A DNA stretch of 11,514 bases, taken from NCBI GenBank assembly GCA_030649345.1, contig JAUSKK010000035.1, positions 1-11,514 on the forward strand. The letters are read 5' to 3'. The DNA is from Candidatus Iainarchaeum sp. (lineage in GTDB: Archaea > Iainarchaeota > Iainarchaeia > Iainarchaeales > 0-14-0-20-34-12). Below the pieces are notes generated by a model that saw only the letters and a program-made list of their open reading frames with translations, was not told the origin of the DNA and did no database searches. Made by a program: the position numbers and the translations under genes. Shown in pieces: positions 2,057 through 11,514 of the stretch; position 1 is the stretch's first letter, and every line of letters starts with the position of its first letter.

Positions 2057-2695
2057 ATGCCGGACTTAAAGCAAATTTGCCATGATTGTAAAGCAGAATG
2101 CTGTAAACGTTACTGGATTACTTTAGTTCCAGAACAAGCGCAAAAGATTGCCAATTCCTTAAATCTTTCTTTGCCGGAATTCATTCAAAAATACACTGTA
2201 CTCTATCTTCAACTAATTCCAGTTCCAATTCCAGTTCAAGATCCATTGTTTTTTTCTAAAAATCAATTTTCTGAAAAAATCCAAATAAACTTGGAAAAAA
2301 ACAATAGTTTGGATCAAAACTTTTTTGCCTTACCTTTACTGGCCTTAAAACGCATTTCTTCTGAAGACGGTAAAAAATCTTGTGTATTTTTGAAAAATAA
2401 TTACGAATGTTCCATTTATTCAGTACGTCCAACTCAATGCCAGTTGTTTCCTTTTGTCATGCCGGATTCAGTTGAAAATTTGAAAAAAATTTATCCTTTC
2501 TGCGGTTTAATTGAACATGTTTCGGCTGAACCTTTAAAAATTTCCAAACACGAACAAGTAGTCAAAAATTATTTTGAACAAGTAAAACAAAAAGGTTTTC
2601 AAAAAGTTTGGCCTGCTTTGCCTGAACAAGGTTTTTGTTTTGTGAACGGAAAAGAATTAACTGAAATTTCTCAGCAAGATCTTTTATTTATTTGA
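2057..2695 (+). CDS. YkgJ/UPF0153-family cysteine-cluster protein (putative Fe-S or zinc binding)
   Basis: It is a 212-aa ORF. The N-terminal CHDCKAECCKRYW matches the CxxCxxxCC signature. The C-terminal part (KSCVFLKNNYECSIYSVRPTQCQLFPF) matches the family's second Cys block (C.FL....C.IY..RP..C..FP). Confidence 0.75.
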   Translation: MPDLKQICHDCKAECCKRYWITLVPEQAQKIANSLNLSLPEFIQKYTVLYLQLIPVPIPVQDPLFFSKNQFSEKIQINLEKNNSLDQNFFALPLLALKRISSEDGKKSCVFLKNNYECSIYSVRPTQCQLFPFVMPDSVENLKKIYPFCGLIEHVSAEPLKISKHEQVVKNYFEQVKQKGFQKVWPALPEQGFCFVNGKELTEISQQDLLFI

Positions 2696-2698
2696 AGT

Positions 2699-2853
2699 AG
2701 GTATCGTATCTGAAGGAGGCGATTTGCCGAAGGCTTTAGTGAGCGGTACCGTAAAATCGAAGATTTTACGTATGTGCAAAACTCAGAGTTTTGCAGTATA
2801 TCGGAACGTAGAATCGAGCAAAGCGAAGATTCTACAGCAGGAGGTATCGGAAC
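2699..2853. repeat. intergenic cluster of perfect hairpins bracketed by 8-bp direct repeats; candidate structured ncRNA or intron-like repeat element
   Basis: Hairpins are CGTAAAATC-GAA-GATTTTACG (2750-2770), TGCAAAACT-CAG-AGTTTTGCA (2775-2795) and GTAGAATC-12 nt-GATTCTAC (2808-2835), plus GCC-GAA-GGC (2726-2734). Direct repeats are AGGTATCG at 2699-2706 and 2842-2849, and TATCGGAAC at 2799-2807 and 2845-2853. The region lies between convergent genes and is visibly more GC-rich than its flanks. Confidence 0.45.
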
Positions 2854-3600
2854 CTAAGGTTCTGATTTGCAGACAAATAACCATTCCCTGTTTTTGAGCG
2901 TAGCTTCTTTTAATTTTCGATCCCCGTATATTTTTATTTTTTTGAATCCAGCTTTCTTTAAAATTTGTTTAACTTCTTCCAATTCATACACTCGTTGATC
3001 TACTCTGTATTCTTTTTCTTTAAACAAATTTCCGTGCATTCGCTCCAATACTTTTAATTTAATGCTCCAATCTTTTCCATTTAATTTATCCAGCCAAATA
3101 AATTCAGTATCTGAATTTACAACATCGCCGTACCCTAAACTGTCCAGCATGTCTTGCACATGTCTTTGGGTGGCAATGTTAAAAATTAATAATCCATTTT
3201 CATTCAAATGTTTTCTGGCTTCCCTGCAAACTTTTTCCATTATTTTGGGTTCCAAAAAATGATTGAATACATCAATGGAAACAATTAAATCAAACTTTGT
3301 TTTCGGTTTAAAGTCTTCAATTTTTTTTCCCACCCACGCAATGTGCGGAACCATCCAGGATTTTTCTCGAGCAACTTTTAACATTTCTTTGCTTTGATCA
3401 ATCCCAGTAACTGCACAGCCTAATTCAGCAAATGCAATAGCCATTTTCCCTGTTCCAGTTCCTAAATCTAAAACATTCAACAATTCGTTTTTTTCAATTC
3501 TTGCAATTTTTTCAATCAAAAAAAGCCATTCATCTTGGCTTTGTTCCGTTATTTGATCATAGACTTTGGCAAACTCGTACGAATTGGTTTTCCCCTTCAT
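2854..3600 (-). CDS. class I SAM-dependent methyltransferase (Methyltransf_11/25-like), substrate unknown
   Basis: Motif I is VLDLGTGTGKMA, followed by the acidic motif II residue (GIDQS) and a post-I region typical of small-molecule or RNA methyltransferases. I chose the start at the second ATG (complement of 3598-3600), because it forms an ATGA overlap with the upstream gene's TGA stop (3597-3599). The track start at 3630 remains possible. Confidence 0.75.
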   Translation of the reverse strand: MKGKTNSYEFAKVYDQITEQSQDEWLFLIEKIARIEKNELLNVLDLGTGTGKMAIAFAELGCAVTGIDQSKEMLKVAREKSWMVPHIAWVGKKIEDFKPKTKFDLIVSIDVFNHFLEPKIMEKVCREARKHLNENGLLIFNIATQRHVQDMLDSLGYGDVVNSDTEFIWLDKLNGKDWSIKLKVLERMHGNLFKEKEYRVDQRVYELEEVKQILKKAGFKKIKIYGDRKLKEATLKNREWLFVCKSEP

Positions 3601-4688
3601 GGTTTCATTGGCTCCAGTACAGCTAAACATTCCATATGATTGGTGTTTGGAAAAAAATCAAACCCTTTAATAGATTCTAAAGCATAATTGGATTCTTTAA
3701 ACCATTCGATGTCTCGGCATAAAGTCACTGGATTGCAGGAAACATAGAAAACTTTCTTGGGTTTTCGTTCAGCAATTCGTTGAATGGTTTTCTTTTCAGC
3801 TCCAGCTCTCGGCGGATCCAAGCAAACAAAATCAGTTTCAAAATCTAAATCTTTCAATACTTTTCGCGCACTTCCAGCTATAAATTCAGCATTTCCAATG
3901 CCATTCAGTTTTGCATTTTCTTGGGCTAGCTGAACTGAATTTTCTTCAAATTCTATTCCTAAGACTTTGAAGCTTTTTTGAGCCAAAGGCAAAGTTAAAG
4001 CGCCTACACCGCAATACAAATCCAGTATATTTTGTCCTTCCGGCACTCGGTTGACTAAATCAGTAAACAATTTTTCTGCTTGAACAATATTGGCTTGAAA
4101 AAAAGTATTGTGACCCATTTTGAATCTTAAGTTCATAAAATGTTCTTCTAAAAAATTTTCTCCAAATGTTTTTATTAATTTTCCTTGTGAAGTATCGCTT
4201 AAAGTATCATTTAAAATCCAAACCAAACCAGTTAACTTTAATTCTTTCAAACAATCATTTGCAATTTGTTCTATCTCTTTTTCAATTTCTAAAGTATTTG
4301 AAACCAATGAAATCAGAAATTGATTTGTTCGTTTGGTTTCCCGCAAAACAGCATACTTTACTTTTCCGGTTAAATTGAATTCATTTAATTTTTTTTCTAA
4401 AAACCGCGCAACTTGATTTGCTTTTTCAGACATTAGCAAACAATGCTGTAAAGAAAAAGTTTCTTGAAAATTTTCTTTTCGTCTCAAACCAAGTTTTCTA
4501 TTCAAGAAAGCCAATTCTAATTTATTTCTGTAAAAAAACTGGTTTTCACTTTTCTCAAACTGAATGTTTTGTCCAAAAAATTGCGCTAGATTGTTTTGTT
4601 TTTCTTGGCATTGATTTTCGTACGAGTATTCCATTTTAGGGCAGCCATTGCATTCTGTAAAGTGTACGCACATTTGTTTAGTGCTCAT
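3597..4688 (-). CDS. RumA/TrmA-type RNA (uracil-C5)-methyltransferase lacking the N-terminal TRAM domain
   Basis: An N-terminal Cx5Cx2C (CVHFTECNGC) plus a distal Cys (LQHCLL) resembles the RumA [4Fe-4S] ligands. The SAM motif is LDLYCGVGALTL, followed by LDPPRAGA and the catalytic-Cys motif FYVSCNPVTLCRD. Confidence 0.85.
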   Translation of the reverse strand: MSTKQMCVHFTECNGCPKMEYSYENQCQEKQNNLAQFFGQNIQFEKSENQFFYRNKLELAFLNRKLGLRRKENFQETFSLQHCLLMSEKANQVARFLEKKLNEFNLTGKVKYAVLRETKRTNQFLISLVSNTLEIEKEIEQIANDCLKELKLTGLVWILNDTLSDTSQGKLIKTFGENFLEEHFMNLRFKMGHNTFFQANIVQAEKLFTDLVNRVPEGQNILDLYCGVGALTLPLAQKSFKVLGIEFEENSVQLAQENAKLNGIGNAEFIAGSARKVLKDLDFETDFVCLDPPRAGAEKKTIQRIAERKPKKVFYVSCNPVTLCRDIEWFKESNYALESIKGFDFFPNTNHMECLAVLEPMKP

Positions 4689-4699
4689 ATACTATTTTT

Positions 4700-4903
4700 T
4701 CAACACATTAGCCTAAAAAAGCAGTTCTTTTGGTTTTTTTGGACATTATGTTTTTTGGTTTCATTGTTTTTTACTGCTTTCATTAAATAGTCTTTGTATT
4801 GGCTGATGTAAACTTGGCATAAATATTTTGCAAATGGTTTTTCAGTGTAGGTCTTCTGCGATTGCGTATTTTCATTGGTACCGGTATAACACTTTCCAAA
4901 CAT
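4700..4903 (-). CDS. possible small Lys/Asn-rich protein (67 aa); weak call
   Basis: The only support is an open ATG-initiated frame ending 12 nt before the RumA-like start. I see no ribosome-binding motif and no recognisable family. It could equally be non-coding leader or promoter DNA. Confidence 0.2.
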   Translation of the reverse strand: MFGKCYTGTNENTQSQKTYTEKPFAKYLCQVYISQYKDYLMKAVKNNETKKHNVQKNQKNCFFRLMC

Positions 4904-4934
4904 GCATGCCTGGTTACTTTTATGGAATTGGGTG

Positions 4935-4950
4935 AAAAAATGCTTTTTTT
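4935..4950 (-). terminator. candidate transcription stop after the surface-protein gene (A6-TGC-T7 palindromic A/T tract; gives oligo-T on the minus strand)
   Basis: The tract lies 40-55 nt past the TAA at 4990-4992 on the coding strand. Archaeal termination commonly uses oligo-T runs. There is no experimental support. Confidence 0.3.
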
Positions 4951-4989
4951 ATTTAGTGTGCTTGCGTGGTGGTTTTGTTTCTAAATAGG

Positions 4990-6678
4990 TTATTGTACAG
5001 TGATAGTTGGCCCGGTAAATGTATCGTTTGCAGTGTTAGGGTCGTTATCAAAGTCTATGGTAACACTGGTTTGAAATGTTCCCGGGCTGGGCCCATAGGA
5101 GTGCTGGAAGTTACACAAGGTCTGCACTTGATTTAGTGTGCTCGCGGTGCTTCCTTGGCAGTTTTTGTCACCGCTGCCATCTCCAAAGTTGATGTGAATC
5201 GTGTATCCGTTGAATGATTCACCTGAAGACGATCCAGGGCCCAAGTTGATGGTTGAAATGTTATAACTAAACACTTGATGCACGGCCAAGGTTTGGGTTG
5301 ACGTATTAAACGCTGCATTGTTTACGGTTACGTTCACGTTGTCAACCTTGTAATCGTATTCTTGCGGTGCAGCGGGTGGCACATTCAAGTTCACACTGGT
5401 TTCGCAGGATGCATAATCAGTATCAATCATAATGTTCTTGCTGGTTCCATAATTTACTGCGCTATAAGAACAAGTCGCAGTGGCAGTGTCTCCAACAGCA
5501 GTCACAGTTTGCTGGTTGTTTTGAGAACCTTCACAGCGTACTCGGACTTCAGTATTTGGGCTGTCGACATCTGTTACAGTTACTGTTATTTCGCCTGCGC
5601 CGTTAAGCATAGTAGGATTTACAGTCACTGTACATTCTTCGTATTGCATAGTATCTTCATAAGGGCAGTTGACGATCTCGCATCCGTTTTCGTCTGTCTC
5701 ACGAATGGGTGTTTTCCCATCTGCTCTACATTGTTGTTCGCTTTCTTGCAGGCTGACTTCGCTGATGCAACTGTTTTGAGTGATCACAGTAATGTTCTTG
5801 GAGCAGGAAAATGTTTCGGTTTCGTTGATAAGATTAACAGTAATATTTCGGCTCCCAATAAAGGATTCATCGGAGTAGCGACAACTGAATGCTTTTTCTC
5901 TGCCAGTGACTGTAATGTTTTCGTTTCCAGTTCCGTAATCACAGTCCAGTGTTCCTGTAACTGGATATTCGAGGTTTTCAAGGATCACGTAAGAGTATAC
6001 TGGAGATCCATTTACTTGGACTTCAAGAGGATATGAGTCAAGCGTACAAGCTGGTTCCAAATTTGTAGTCTCATTGTCTTCGCTATCTTCTTCAGTATCT
6101 GAAGTTCCATCTTCGTTGTCTTCAGGTGTTGTTGTCTCAACATCAGTAGGTTGGGTTTCCGTAGTGTCAGTATTTTCTACTTCTCCACAGTCACTGTCCA
6201 ATTCAGTTGTGCAGCCTTCTGGGCAGTATTCGTCTCCGCCTGCACAAGCAGTGATGTATGTGCTTCCACATGTTTTTGGTTCTCCGGAGCACACGTCTCT
6301 TGTAGCAGGATTATTATCATCACAGTCAGTGTCTTCTTCACAACTGTCAGTTCGGTTGACTTTTCTGATAAAACAGACAAGTTGTTTGTCGGCAACACTT
6401 ACCCATGCTTGCATGATAGATTCCGGACTTTCAATGTTTGCGTAGAAATAATCTTGGGCTGGAATACTCTTTCCGCATTTCTCGCTAATGTCTGCAAGCT
6501 GAGTTGTAATTTCGGCTTCAGTCAATAGAACAACAGTTAAGTCCGAGTCCGGATTTTCCGCCAAAAAGTTTTGTACTTCCGGTAAATTTGAAACAATATT
6601 GGTTGCAGAGTCTCCGCCTTGCGTACATCCAAACAAAACAAGTGCTGCTAGAATGAATGCTGCAGTTCGTAATTGCAT
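4990..6678 (-). CDS. secreted or lipid-anchored Cys-rich surface protein with an acidic Thr/Asp/Glu linker, two paralogous Cys-containing beta-type modules and a PKD-like C-terminal domain
   Basis: I take the start at ATG (complement of 6676-6678), because the track start at 6687 is a TTG. The N-terminus MQLRTAAFILAALVLFGCTQGG looks like a signal peptide with a lipobox-like LFGC. A Cys/Asp-rich block (CEEDTDCDDNNPATRDVCSGEPKTCG...) follows. The linker is TDTTETQPTDVETTTPEDNEDGTSDTEEDSEDNETT. There are many N-x-S/T sequons. The C-terminus INFGDGSG...FQHSYGPSPGTFQTSVTID resembles the PKD signature. Confidence 0.8.
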   Translation of the reverse strand: MQLRTAAFILAALVLFGCTQGGDSATNIVSNLPEVQNFLAENPDSDLTVVLLTEAEITTQLADISEKCGKSIPAQDYFYANIESPESIMQAWVSVADKQLVCFIRKVNRTDSCEEDTDCDDNNPATRDVCSGEPKTCGSTYITACAGGDEYCPEGCTTELDSDCGEVENTDTTETQPTDVETTTPEDNEDGTSDTEEDSEDNETTNLEPACTLDSYPLEVQVNGSPVYSYVILENLEYPVTGTLDCDYGTGNENITVTGREKAFSCRYSDESFIGSRNITVNLINETETFSCSKNITVITQNSCISEVSLQESEQQCRADGKTPIRETDENGCEIVNCPYEDTMQYEECTVTVNPTMLNGAGEITVTVTDVDSPNTEVRVRCEGSQNNQQTVTAVGDTATATCSYSAVNYGTSKNIMIDTDYASCETSVNLNVPPAAPQEYDYKVDNVNVTVNNAAFNTSTQTLAVHQVFSYNISTINLGPGSSSGESFNGYTIHINFGDGSGDKNCQGSTASTLNQVQTLCNFQHSYGPSPGTFQTSVTIDFDNDPNTANDTFTGPTITVQ

Positions 6679-6726
6679 CCTAACCAAAGGACTTTCAGAT
6701 TTATATTCTTTTCGTGCAAAAATATT

Positions 6727-6951
6727 TGCCCCAGCCGGGAATTGAACCCGAATCTCCGCCGAACTTCAACGCTTTTTGTTAACATTTTTTGCAAACGCAA
6801 AAAAGGTTTCGCCGAAGGCATTTTCCGCCAACGCTTTTTTGCAACCAAGTAAAACCAGCTGGTTTTACGGGTCCAGCAAAGCTATTGCTTTGCTTGACAG
6901 CAAAAAAGGGTTGTGAGAGGGCAGTATACTTAGCCGTTGTACTACCGGGGC
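6727..6951 (-). tRNA. tRNA-Glu (anticodon CUC) interrupted by a 152-nt intron at position 37/38
   Basis: The 5' exon (6951-6914) reads GCCCCGG-TA-GTAC-AACGGCTAA-GTAT-A-CTGCC-CTCTCA. The 3' exon (6761-6727) reads C-GGCGG-AGAT-TCGGG-TTCAATT-CCCGG-CTGGGGC-A. Joined, they give a 73-nt cloverleaf with one G.U in the acceptor, one U.G in the anticodon stem, one G.U in the D stem and one U.G in the T stem. The splice junction is ambiguous by 1 nt, and isotype identity rests on the CUC reading. Confidence 0.75.
6762..6913 (-). other. long, ORF-less, highly structured tRNA intron
   Basis: All coordinates are + strand. There is a 20-nt perfect palindrome GTAAAACCAGCTGGTTTTAC (6849-6868), an 8-bp hairpin AGCAAAGC-TATT-GCTTTGCT (6875-6894) and an 8-bp hairpin TTTTTTGC-AAAC-GCAAAAAA (6785-6804). 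CTTTTTTGC (6834-6842) is complementary to GCAAAAAAG at both 6797-6805 and 6900-6908. The intron termini pair with each other. Confidence 0.65.
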
Positions 6952-8123: not shown

Positions 8124-8402
8124 TTATTTGTAAATATTATCATGATGGTCAAATCTGTCAAATAGACTAAAGTTTTCTTTTTTGAATACTTTAAACAATA
8201 ATACAAAACTTTTTGCAATATGAACCCGCTTATAATCGCTTAATCCGTATCTTAAGTTTTTGTAATGGTCTATGGTAAATTCATCTGAATTGATAATTTC
8301 TTTGATTTTTTTGTTTAATGCTTCGGTTATTTTTTGATCTCTTTTTGCCAATATTTTCAGCTGATCTTTTAATTCTTCAGATAAGCCAAAGGAAAATGGC
8401 AT
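8124..8402 (-). CDS. RelE/ParE-superfamily type II toxin (putative mRNA interferase)
   Basis: It is 92 aa. The pattern L..L.K.D......I.KKI.EI......KNLRYGLSDYKRVHIAKSFVLLFKV matches the RelE/StbE-like core. Its ATG immediately follows the TAA of the upstream small gene (8403-8405). Confidence 0.7.
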   Translation of the reverse strand: MPFSFGLSEELKDQLKILAKRDQKITEALNKKIKEIINSDEFTIDHYKNLRYGLSDYKRVHIAKSFVLLFKVFKKENFSLFDRFDHHDNIYK

Positions 8403-8666
8403 TTATTCGCCTCGGGTTAATTTATCCAATTCCTTAACACTCATTTTTCGAAAACCGTATTTTTTAATATGCTGATTGCAGGACTCAATCACTTCTTTGA
8501 TGACTTCTTCTCTGACTTCGCGATCTACAAATTCTTCGCCATACATTTCAGCAAATTTTTCCAAAGCCTGTGCTTTATCTTTCAAACCGTACTTTTCTTT
8601 TACAACGCCCAACACTCTGCTGGCATACTCACTTACTTTCAAATTCATAGTCACACTTTTACCCAT
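8403..8666 (-). CDS. putative antitoxin (possible ribbon-helix-helix N-terminus, acidic C-terminus)
   Basis: It is 87 aa and sits directly upstream of, and abutting, the RelE-like gene. The N-terminus NLKVSEYASRVLGVVKEKYGLKDKAQALEKF is compatible with a strand-helix-helix fold. An AGGTGG motif lies upstream of the ATG. The assignment rests mainly on genomic context. Confidence 0.5.
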   Translation of the reverse strand: MGKSVTMNLKVSEYASRVLGVVKEKYGLKDKAQALEKFAEMYGEEFVDREVREEVIKEVIESCNQHIKKYGFRKMSVKELDKLTRGE

Positions 8667-8742: not shown

Positions 8743-8836
8743 TGCCGGTGGACAGATTTGAACTGTCGACGCCCAGATCACCCTTCAATTTTAGAAGCTA
8801 TGAGTCTGGTGCTCTACCAGGCTGAGCTACACCGGC
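8743..8836 (-). tRNA. tRNA-Met or tRNA-Ile2 (anticodon CAU; non-initiator acceptor stem) with a 20-nt intron at 37/38
   Basis: The minus strand reads GCCGGTG-TA-GCTC-AGCCTGGTA-GAGC-A-CCAGA-CTCATA-[GCTTCTAAAATTGAAGGGTG]-A-TCTGG-GCGTC-GACAG-TTCAAAT-CTGTC-CACCGGC-A. All stems are perfect Watson-Crick. The intron occupies 8779-8798. Confidence 0.9.
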
Positions 8837-8842
8837 TCTTCC

Positions 8843-8871
8843 CTTTTTCTTTCTTCTCAAGAAAGAAAAAG
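8843..8871. repeat. 13-bp perfect homopyrimidine/homopurine hairpin (CTTTTTCTTTCTT-CTC-AAGAAAGAAAAAG)
   Basis: Exact reverse-complement arms at 8843-8855 and 8859-8871 enclose a 3-nt loop. The hairpin lies 6 nt upstream of the tRNA 5' end and 64 nt downstream of the RpiA-like stop, so it may be a terminator, an insulator or a leader structure. Confidence 0.5.
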
Positions 8872-10576: not shown

Positions 10577-10629
10577 AAAAAAGAAAACATTCGATCAAAA
10601 TAAAAAGAATAACTTTTCACAGTCACATC

Positions 10630-10672
10630 AGTTTTGTCCAACAAATTGAAGCCACTTTTCTTGGACAAAACT
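10630..10672. repeat. 12-bp perfect inverted repeat (AGTTTTGTCCAA-19 nt-TTGGACAAAACT) in a divergent intergenic region
   Basis: The arms at 10630-10641 and 10661-10672 are exact reverse complements, followed on the + strand by TTTT. The repeat lies between the start of the 129-aa gene (10576) and the LAGLIDADG start (10780). Confidence 0.45.
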
Positions 10673-10703
10673 TTTTAAGAATTTAAAAATAAAAAATTCA
10701 GTT

Positions 10704-10720
10704 CACCGGAAACACCGGAA
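10704..10720. repeat. tandem CACCGGAA-A-CACCGGAA direct repeat (GC island in AT-rich spacer)
   Basis: There are two exact 8-mers with a 9-bp period at 10704-10711 and 10713-10720. Each contains the palindrome CCGG. They lie about 60 nt upstream of the LAGLIDADG ATG. Confidence 0.35.
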
Positions 10721-10779
10721 GTCTACCTCCCAACTCTTTTTAAAGGAAAAAAATGTAAATCTTATTTGATGGTGGTTGA

Positions 10780-11514
10780 ATGAGATTCAATAAAAAAGCA
10801 ATAATTCCTTCTGGAATCACAAAAGAACTTGCCGAAGAAACTGGCATTCATATCGGTGATGGTTATTTGGGGTTTGGCAAATATAAAACCAATATAGCTT
10901 ACGCATATTCAGTAACAAATGGTATTGATGAAGAAGATTATTCCTTAAACTATATTGCGCCTTTGATTTACAAGCTTTATGGACTTCTGCCTTCAGTCTA
11001 TCGTGGGAAAGACAATGCAATATATTTGCATTATAAGTCAAAGATTTTGTTTAATTTTAAAAAAGATCTTGGTTTGCCAGTTGGCCCAAAAGACAGTGTA
11101 CTCATTCCAATTGCAATATTGAACTCAGAATATGTTCTTGATTGCATTCGAGGGATTTTTGACACAGATGGTTCTTTAAATTTTCAGAAAAAACACAAAA
11201 GTTATCACTATTATCCACGGTTGGATATTGCAGCTAAAAACAGAGAGCTCATTCTCCAAATTGATCGTGTACTTAAATGTCTTGGTTTTACAACTTCATT
11301 GCAATTAGATACGAAAAAGCTTACCTGCGCTGGAACCATTTGCACTTCTAGTCGGATATTTTTATATGGGAAAAGAAACTTAGAACTTTGGCTTAAACGA
11401 ATTGGATTCTCAAATCCTAAAAACCTAAACAAACTTAAAATCTGGCGAGAAAAAGGCTATTGTGAAAAGCCCTGGGAGGGAATTGAACCCTCGACCTCAA
11501 CATTACCAATGTTG
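10780..11514 (+). CDS. double-motif LAGLIDADG homing endonuclease, free-standing; no stop before the window end
   Basis: It is missing from the ORF track because it runs off the window. I checked the frame line by line: 245 codons are open from the ATG at 10780, which is preceded by an in-frame TGA and a GGTGG motif. Motif 1 is LAEETGIHIGDG (aa 17-28). Motif 2 is LDCIRGIFDTDG (aa 120-131). Both retain the catalytic Asp. The inter-motif and post-motif lengths are typical of monomeric enzymes. Confidence 0.85.
   Translation, partial: MRFNKKAIIPSGITKELAEETGIHIGDGYLGFGKYKTNIAYAYSVTNGIDEEDYSLNYIAPLIYKLYGLLPSVYRGKDNAIYLHYKSKILFNFKKDLGLPVGPKDSVLIPIAILNSEYVLDCIRGIFDTDGSLNFQKKHKSYHYYPRLDIAAKNRELILQIDRVLKCLGFTTSLQLDTKKLTCAGTICTSSRIFLYGKRNLELWLKRIGFSNPKNLNKLKIWREKGYCEKPWEGIEPSTSTLPML
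11468..11514 (-). tRNA. tRNA-Thr (anticodon GGU), 3' portion only (truncated by the window end)
   Basis: The minus strand reads ...CAACA-TTGGTAA-TGTTG-AGGTC-GAGGG-TTCAATT-CCCTC-CCAGGGC-T. The anticodon arm, variable loop, T arm and 3' acceptor strand are complete. There is no intron at 37/38. Confidence 0.8.

Follow-up and report, generated by a model that had tools for sequence, protein, structure and literature searches.

A small double-hairpin repeat of DPANN archaea as a probable insertion between two convergent genes

The 158-nt spacer separating two convergent genes in an 11,514-nt stretch of DNA from Candidatus Iainarchaeum sp. (contig JAUSKK010000035.1; hereafter the window, to which all unlabelled positions refer) is probably a copy of a small, non-coding and non-autonomous insertion element. 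The element is similar to repetitive extragenic palindromic (REP) sequences and bacterial interspersed mosaic elements (BIMEs), or to Rickettsia palindromic elements (RPEs), and belongs to a family scattered in DPANN-type archaea. The insert is best read as a mosaic of short perfect palindromes arranged around a conserved double-hairpin core, and kept as a folded structure. At several unrelated loci of at least one complete DPANN genome, and in other archaeal contigs, the core recurs, both stems and the closing helix showing compensatory changes. Copies settle where extra sequence is tolerated, namely at gene 3' ends, in tRNA flanks, in a 16S leader, within a tRNA intron and in a membrane-protein loop, where the frame is kept. 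Each unit is preceded by a 5-35-nt stretch that repeats either the target or the unit's own 3' end.

The window is archaeal and AT-rich (about 33% G+C), and includes intron-bearing tRNA genes. The nearest named homologues of its HtpX protease are found in Micrarchaeota, Aenigmarchaeota and Nanoarchaeia, all DPANN lineages, which points to a DPANN origin of the window.

The inserted element and its empty sites

The features of the spacer and of its immediate surroundings are the following.

2057-2695, + strand: CxxCxxCC (ykgJ-like) gene, Pfam PF03692; its last codons and TGA stop (2693-2695) are at the left junction of the insert
2684-2694 and 2870-2880: left and right halves of the palindromic target TTATTTATTTG / CAGACAAATAA, with the insertion at its centre; contig L039 has TTTGCAAA
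2690-2694 (left) and 2865-2869 (right): junction repeat ATTTG; a third copy, 2721-2725, lies just before GCCGAAGGC
2695-2869: inserted DNA as aligned with L039, 175 nt including one copy of ATTTG; the element proper covers about 2695-2864
2696-2853: 158-nt spacer between the convergent ykgJ-like and methyltransferase genes
2696-2730, + strand: left terminal direct repeat, 35 nt, 71% identical to 2839-2873; degenerate copy of the right end
2699 and 2842 (starts): direct repeat AGGTATCG
2726-2734, + strand: GCCGAAGGC, a GCC-GAA-GGC mini-hairpin that opens the conserved left arm
2739-2806, + strand: conserved double-hairpin core, made of closing helix (2747-2750/2795-2798), hairpin 1 (hp1), linker and hairpin 2 (hp2)
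2750-2770, + strand: hp1, perfect, 9 bp
2758 and 2824 (starts): the two occurrences of CGAAGATT
2775-2795, + strand: hp2, perfect, 9 bp
2799-2807 and 2845-2853: 9-nt direct repeat TATCGGAAC, bracketing hairpin 3 (hp3)
2808-2835, + strand: hp3, perfect, 8 bp (GTAGAATC...GATTCTAC), paralogue of hp1
2839-2873, + strand: right terminal direct repeat, paired with 2696-2730
2846-2866, + strand: terminal hairpin ATCGGAACC-TAA-GGTTCTGAT, spanning the methyltransferase stop codon (2854-2856)
2854-3630, - strand: S-adenosylmethionine (SAM) methyltransferase gene; the final three codons (SEP) and the TAG stop fall within the insert

The hairpins, motifs and repeats that a preliminary description had listed in the spacer are all found where it placed them, hp1 to hp3 being all inside 86 nt. 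The hairpin cluster is far beyond chance. Fourteen perfect hairpins of at least 8 bp are present in the window, against 3.0 in shuffled sequences, and six of them fall within the clusters of the spacer and of a tRNA intron described below. The RNA fold of 2690-2880 has a z-score of -6.5 on the + strand and of -4.2 on the - strand.

Contig L039 encodes the nearest homologue of the methyltransferase (79% identity), again convergent with a CxxCxxCC gene; the flanking genes are 78-79% identical to those of the window. There is no spacer in L039, where the genes share a 21-nt overlap. A global alignment of the two regions features a single 175-nt gap facing approximately 2690-2864 of the window; homology ends at about 2689 and restarts at about 2865. 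The filled junctions read TTTTATTT|ATTTGAAGTAGG...GGTTCTG|ATTTGCAGAC, and the empty site of L039 reads TTTCATTT-TTTGCAAAC; at the left junction, TATTT|ATTTGAAG... in the filled site corresponds to ...TTTG|CAGAC in the empty one. The only repeat common to the insert junctions and the empty site is ATTTG. The spacer is missing also in the outgroup contig L040 (48% identical), where the stop codons overlap. The methyltransferase terminates with ..WLFVCKSEP* in the window, and with ..WLWVCKK* and ..WLFVAQR* in P0002 and P0003, respectively; it is extended in the window only, and deletion in silico of 2695-2869 restores the end ..WLFVCK*. The ykgJ-like protein ends with ..DLLFI* in the window and with ..ELSFFANP* in L039. 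The empty sites of L039 and L040 and the extended methyltransferase C-terminus thus point to an insertion acquired in the lineage of the window, rather than to an old intergenic region. The insert now provides the stop codons of both flanking genes, as a new TGA on one side and as three extra codons followed by TAG on the other.

The claim that the intergenic copy had been inserted is hence borne out by empty sites in two relatives. The part of the claim that regarded AGGTATCG as a target duplication flanking the element has to be abandoned, because both copies of this sequence are within the inserted DNA. AGGTATCG belongs instead to the 35-nt terminal repeats, situated within the insert or at its margin, which had escaped notice, as had the terminal hairpin at 2846-2866 and the kinship of hp3 to hp1. 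An independent assembly of the region (L001, a Logan contig from SRR13727527, corresponding to window 2840-5869) breaks off within the element at 2840; a graph branch due to a repeat, or a strain variant, would produce such a stop.

As a whole, the window element looks like a mosaic in which a degenerate copy of the right end (2696-2720), ATTTG, the GCCGAAGGC arm, the hp1-hp2 core, hp3 and the terminal hairpin follow one another. The four hairpins are related units. Repeats shared by hp3 and hp1 cover 16 nt at 88% and 11 nt at 91%, and hp3 seems clearly derived from hp1. The terminal hairpin is similar to a module, GCAGAAC-AAA-GTTCTGC, found in the genome of the archaeon GW2011_AR10 (hereafter AR10). 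No intrinsic terminator (G+C-rich stem followed by a T-run) was detected on either strand of 2400-3200, and plain terminator hairpins are not supported, since no T-run follows any of the stems. A 57-codon open reading frame (ORF) starting with TTG and crossing the element (2723-2896, + strand, GGAGG upstream) was rejected for lack of support; it overlaps the 3' end of the methyltransferase gene, and the in-frame AR10 copy described below is read in the opposite orientation.

The double-hairpin family

A second copy of the element is found in the window, in the intron of a tRNA-Glu gene.

6727-6951, - strand: tRNA-Glu(CUC), interrupted at the anticodon loop by a 152-nt intron (6762-6913); called by ARAGORN in intron mode
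6797-6912, + strand: second element copy, nested in the tRNA-Glu intron and antisense to the tRNA
6797-6809 and 6900-6912: flanking repeat GCAAAAAAGG(T/G)TT, 13 nt, own direct repeat of the intron copy
6811-6819: GCCGAAGGC
6837-6905: core, including hp1 (6849-6868) and hp2 (6875-6894)

The tRNA gene was missed both by default ARAGORN and by Rfam, and was detected in ARAGORN intron mode only. The spliced 73-nt product is called tRNA-Glu, and is canonical once the intron is removed; no obvious canonical bulge-helix-bulge is present in the splice-site region. The order GCCGAAGGC, GTAAAAYC hairpin, GCAAAR hairpin, which the preliminary description had reported for the intron region, is confirmed at 6811-6894. 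The intron itself had been taken as the element. Boundaries do not fit: a unit of about 103 nt (6810-6912), with its own flanking repeat, is nested in the 152-nt intron, antisense to the tRNA when read in the common orientation of the family; without it the intron would be about 50 nt long and read CAACCCTTTTTTGCGTTTGCAAAAAATGTTAACAAAAAGCGTTGAAGTT. An orthologous tRNA-Glu gene lacking the unit was sought through the synteny of HtpX, to no avail, as relatives are at most 58% identical and are not syntenic. An intron very like the backbone of the window tRNA-Glu intron, AAAAGCGTTGGCGGAAAA, is found in a tRNA-Ser(GCU) gene (L034 472-644, - strand, corresponding to L036 2878-3050). This intron of about 80 nt opens with the same CAACCCTTTT and contains AAAAGCGTTGACGGAAAA; the double hairpin is absent.

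In a plain pairwise local alignment, 2696-2873 and 6762-6913 score 20-21, compared to 16 +/- 2 for shuffled sequences and 22-23 for other parts of the window. This is not above chance, and the link between spacer and intron therefore depends entirely on the family found elsewhere. One genome per species was searched requiring only GCCGAAGGC followed by the GTAAAAYC hairpin (hp1). Three loci were found, one of which is an intergenic region in the complete genome of the DPANN archaeon AR10 (CP010424.1); there the GCAAAA hairpin (hp2) follows at the same 7-nt distance, though not demanded by the pattern. The other two, bacterial matches to the pattern (L002 and L004), were judged to be due to chance. 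The one in L002 (2960-3040), a Sediminispirochaeta metagenome-assembled genome, consists of three perfect G+C-rich hairpins (GGCGGCCGAAGGCCGCC, GTAAGCCCCCTTCCAGGGGGCTTAC and GTAAAACCACCGGTTTTAC) in a bacterial intergenic region. Metagenomes were scanned requiring hp1 plus GCAAAR. Among the 33 loci obtained, the 3' half of hp2, again not demanded, is present in 12 distinct sequences, including the two of the window. Four are distinct AR10 loci, and about six are found in other archaeal metagenome contigs.

The core is made of a short closing helix, GTAAAAYC-loop-GRTTTTAC, a linker of about 7 nt and GCAAAAN-loop-NTTTTGC. Its structure was tested on the 12 aligned cores as a 4-bp closing helix enclosing an 8-bp hairpin, the linker (often GGNCC) and a second 8-bp hairpin. 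Paired cells amount to 92.8%, compared to 85.5% in shuffles and 29-51% in slid controls. Changes on both sides occur at eight pairs, a number reached by none of 500 shuffles. The stem position earlier described as compensatory is C:G in eight sequences and U:A in four. A covariance model (R1) assigns 63 bits to the spacer core and 63.7 bits to the intron copy. A second model built without the window sequences (R2) picks out exactly the two window copies, scoring 47.4 bits for the spacer and 47.7 bits for the intron, the next best match in the window being 8.6 bits. Alignment and models agree with the earlier proposal of one structured family with compensatory changes in the stems.

Rfam has no match at E <= 1 to either 2690-2870 or 6762-6913, and blastn comparisons to phage and plasmid collections gave no match. 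No family member was found among IMG/VR viral contigs by two scans and a model search. As a control, a looser pattern yielded 33 matches in viral contigs, none of which fits the covariance model. A limited literature search similarly revealed no described family, in line with what had been surmised. The family is real, and is made of previously unlisted double-hairpin repeat elements found in several DPANN archaea.

The AR10 copies are near-identical over about 100 nt, unpaired parts included, as expected of recent copying. By inspection, the intron copy shares with them the left arm AAAGGTTT..GCCG(A/T)AGGC..ATTTT(C/T)CGC, in which GCCG(A/T)AGGC is located where the window element has its mini-hairpin. 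A second double-hairpin module adjoins the main element in AR10.

L010 1537-1580 and L003 3147-3190 (AR10): GCAGAAC-AAA-GTTCTGC GAGACCTC GCAAAC-GGA-GTTTGC, with an 8-nt linker

Two contigs from one 33%-G+C metagenome (L005 2495-2541 and L028 3270-3316) share the sequence G(A/G)TTTTGGTAAAATCTnnnGATTTTACAACGTTGCAAAA, located 50-60 nt upstream of genes starting with ATG. This is a single-hairpin relative of the motif, with model scores of 22-26 bits.

Settings of the copies and other features of the window

In AR10, one copy follows a gene similar to geranylgeranyl reductase genes, one is located between an ORF and tRNA-Gln, and one follows another ORF. The fourth is inside a 721-codon membrane-protein gene (L023:3441-5606), the C-terminus of which matches TIGR03662, and is read through in frame. 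The element encodes here 30 residues (TNPSKIRDFAGHVKPKVLHGGLRKMAYGKN) that are missing from all five homologues, and are unique to AR10. One contig has the motif on the strand opposite to an archaeal 16S rRNA gene, about 55 nt upstream of it. A tRNA-His gene has the motif 33-38 nt upstream, whereas two tRNA-Leu genes and one tRNA-Ser gene have it downstream. Of about ten distinct family members, six are inside, or within about 170 nt of, a tRNA or 16S gene.

Significant flanking direct repeats are found at L023 (14 nt, perfect), L019 (15 nt), L036 (16 nt) and L021 (12 nt). Those at L019, L036 and L021 are perfect duplicates of the 3' end of a tRNA; the L019 duplicate extends, in degenerate form, to about 37 nt. 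The sequence (A/T)TTTG both precedes and ends the units of the window and of AR10. Copies are oriented both ways relative to neighbouring genes. Their orientation relative to GC skew, which should be uniform for transposons moving as single-stranded DNA, is consistent in AR10 (3/3 loci, a weak trend), not across loci. The suggestion that the two window copies represent a shared RNA family does not hold: mixed orientation and the copy in frame within an ORF fit an insertion element acting at the DNA level better than a strand-specific RNA.

The window has further features. Directly downstream of tRNA-Glu, a 565-codon ORF (4990-6687, - strand) encodes a Cys-, Thr- and acid-rich product with a signal peptide. 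It has no Pfam or NCBIfam match, and its G+C content is 42-46%, against a 33% background. The hypothesis that it might be a recombinase was rejected, the product being a secreted Cys/Thr-rich protein. At 8743-8836 (- strand) is an intron-containing tRNA, denoted as Tyr(ata) by default ARAGORN and as Thr(cgt) with a 20-nt intron in intron mode; in the Rfam alignment it reads ..GACUCAU + 22 nt. The longest perfect hairpin in the window, 13 bp long (CTTTTTCTTTCTT-CTC-AAGAAAGAAAAAG, 8843-8871), is found immediately beside the 5' end of this tRNA. A YafQ/RelE-type toxin gene (8124-8402) and its 87-codon upstream partner, together covering 8124-8666 (- strand), are probably a toxin-antitoxin pair. 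The region 10577-11467, about 890 nt, contains ORFs of at most 74 codons, lacks Rfam matches and adjoins a tRNA cut by the end of the window (11468-11514). The listed ORF of a DNA methylase (N6_N4_Mtase, 715-1908, - strand) overlaps tRNA-Thr(UGU) (1842-1914) on the same strand; the true methylase start must hence be further downstream.

Mode of spread and relation to known systems

About 175 nt entered a TTTG|CAAA-like palindrome at its centre, in the overlap between the 3' ends of the convergent genes, and both genes were re-terminated by the insertion. The element may be copied or moved in trans by an enzyme recognising the two hairpins in a folded single-stranded nucleic acid. Folded single-stranded DNA is more likely than a functional RNA, because orientation is random relative to transcription and one copy is translated. 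Insertion would take place after a (A/T)TTTG-like sequence, also carried by the right end of the element. Candidate enzymes are a HUH/Y1-type transposase, as for REP sequences or elements derived from IS200/IS605, or a site-specific integrase. The hairpins may incidentally form a 3'-end barrier between convergent transcripts, which would be a by-product and not the reason for their presence.

Several observations do not favour an insertion element of this type. Because the search patterns came from the window itself, both sequence conservation and model scores are in part circular; features that do not depend on the patterns are the closing helix, the spacing and the 3' half of hp2. About 40 kb of other DPANN DNA host no copy, and the family is therefore patchy. 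The loci read, 8-14 kb long, include housekeeping genes only, with no integrase or transposase beside any copy, and a Pfam scan of the genes neighbouring the insert in the window similarly found no transposase. A repeat search of 2680-2885 revealed internal hairpins and the inverted repeat of the flanking target, and no terminal inverted repeats (TIRs). No inverted repeat joins the ends of the insert, which is thus not a classical MITE (miniature inverted-repeat transposable element). On inspection of the core alignment, the 4-nt guide rule of IS608-type elements does not hold: the bases 5' of hp1 (TACC, CCTT, CCAA...) and of hp2 (linker, about GGNCC) match neither TTTG nor its complement. The flanking repeat AAAGGTTTTTG of the AR10 copies is identical at all four loci, and may therefore be part of the element instead of a target duplication. 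Lastly, the junction repeat is 5 nt long at the sole site with a known empty allele and 12-16 nt elsewhere, and hence no single insertion chemistry suits every copy.

The spacer could alternatively be a functional cis-acting RNA, for instance one that stabilises 3' ends, terminates transcription in both directions or signals the processing of stable RNAs, kept by selection and not mobile. The very strong fold, the position between convergent genes, the covariation of the stems and the proximity of six members to tRNA or 16S genes would all suit such a role. It is unlikely, nevertheless, because the same gene pair simply overlaps in two relatives that lack the element, no T-run follows any stem, copies are found in both orientations, antisense in the tRNA intron and in frame within an ORF, and the similarity of the AR10 copies extends to unpaired parts. 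Larger integrative elements, either plasmids or viruses with tyrosine integrases, might instead have left attachment-site scars, the double hairpin being an arm adjacent to attP and the body having been deleted. At L019, L021 and L034/L036 the motif is indeed between a tRNA and a 12-37-nt duplicate of its 3' end, a classical integrase signature, and an earlier proposal has mobile elements integrating into the tRNA genes of archaea, with gain of introns (PMC3293823). The window and AR10 copies, however, are not at tRNA 3' ends, inserts measure just 95-270 nt and include no integrase remnant, the in-frame 93-nt AR10 insert is hard to obtain by integration and deletion, and the motif was not found in IMG/VR viral contigs. 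Scars of this kind have a low probability.

Still less probable is an RNA-borne mobile element tied to archaeal tRNA splicing and ligation, which would be excised and circularised, and then either reverse-spliced into RNA or copied back into DNA by reverse transcription. Archaeal tRNA introns form circular RNAs once excised (PMC3326292), one copy is inside a tRNA intron, and introns like the backbone of that intron are found in a different tRNA of another organism (L034). This route would explain both units slightly longer than one repeat length and tolerated insertions within genes; the terminal redundancy of 5-35 nt in every unit is what would be expected when a circle is copied. If true, it would supply a mechanism for the spread of archaeal tRNA introns. 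The intron copy, however, runs antisense to the tRNA and is bounded within the intron by a flanking repeat of its own, which makes the intron a host and not the element; no reverse transcriptase is in view. In the minimum-energy fold of the intergenic copy, only AUUUG/CAAAU pairing occurs outside the insert, and no bulge-helix-bulge is evident at the ends, though no dedicated search for this motif was made. Very improbable is, finally, that the palindromes serve as double-stranded operators for a dimeric DNA-binding protein, or are chance hairpins in an AT-rich spacer. Dyad symmetry is perfect and the window hosts an ArsR-type regulator gene, but a single genome hosts both T:A and C:G variants of one hp1 stem position, and hp2 shows free variation at its inner pairs with complementarity preserved, which points to base pairing and not to protein read-out. 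Chance is excluded by the hairpin count relative to shuffles and by the pairing test on the 12 cores.

DPANN genomes are tiny and have almost no spare DNA, and a hairpin family spreading in them is a compact natural experiment on the coexistence of selfish DNA and reduced genomes. With these elements the ends of genes are rewritten, membrane proteins gain peptides and tRNA introns grow longer. The sequence model, together with the pair of empty and filled sites, provides a handle for seeking the enzyme responsible and the origin of long tRNA introns.

REP sequences are mobilised by RAYT, a Y1 HUH transposase. As REPs and BIMEs, the elements described here are short extragenic palindromes, single or in mosaics, typically located between convergent genes, non-autonomous and with stems conserved in structure. 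The modular build, with two kinds of double-hairpin module in AR10 clusters, also resembles that of BIMEs. Differently from REPs, copy number is small, insertions are found inside an ORF and an intron, which is atypical, and the conserved GTAG foot of REPs is found in hp3 only. A unit that ends in TTTG and is inserted after TTTG recalls elements of the IS200/IS605 type, the guide rule of which does not hold here. Miniature elements derived from IS200/IS605 in archaea, the palindrome-associated transposable elements (PATEs), compare in having two similar hairpins about 25 nt from each end, and in what would be insertion after a short fixed sequence (TTTG) that also ends the element; no large duplication is found at the known empty allele. 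In contrast to PATEs, 12-16-nt duplications flank other copies, and neither tnpA nor tnpB was found near any copy. The 12-16-nt duplications of tRNA ends are reminiscent of integrases or casposases; the inserts are, however, tiny and without inverted ends.

A review of MITEs covers Sulfolobus, Halobacterium, Haloquadratum and a few other archaea, and includes no DPANN family (PMC10969869). In a TIR-based census, DPANN genomes are reported to have the highest MITE densities among archaea (PMC11602168). The elements share with MITEs small size, lack of coding capacity, presence in several copies (two in the window, at least four loci in AR10) and presence/absence polymorphism of an insert of about 170 nt. 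Terminal repeats are direct and not inverted, and TIR-based finders would therefore miss the family, and with it a class of archaeal repeats. Mobile or "transposed" archaeal tRNA introns, and the disruption of tRNA genes by integrating elements, have been described (PMC4090602, PMC3293823). As in those, the intron carries a sequence common to other loci, and duplications of tRNA 3' ends are found beside copies. In contrast, the shared unit makes up only a portion of the intron, runs antisense to the tRNA and is found also outside tRNA genes.

The closest analogue in behaviour is represented by RPEs, which are inserted in intergenic regions, in RNA genes and, in frame, in protein genes, where the added peptide is tolerated (PMC10969869). 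Both are palindromic repeats of about 100-150 nt hosted by small reduced genomes and lacking a transposase, and the in-frame AR10 copy behaves likewise. RPE hosts are alpha-proteobacteria, not DPANN archaea; one long palindrome is replaced here by two separate 8-bp hairpins with 3-4-nt loops, no kinship in sequence is expected, and a single in-frame case has been found so far. The resemblance is functional only, and the family has not been filed as an RPE; it is in behaviour the archaeal counterpart of the Rickettsia elements.

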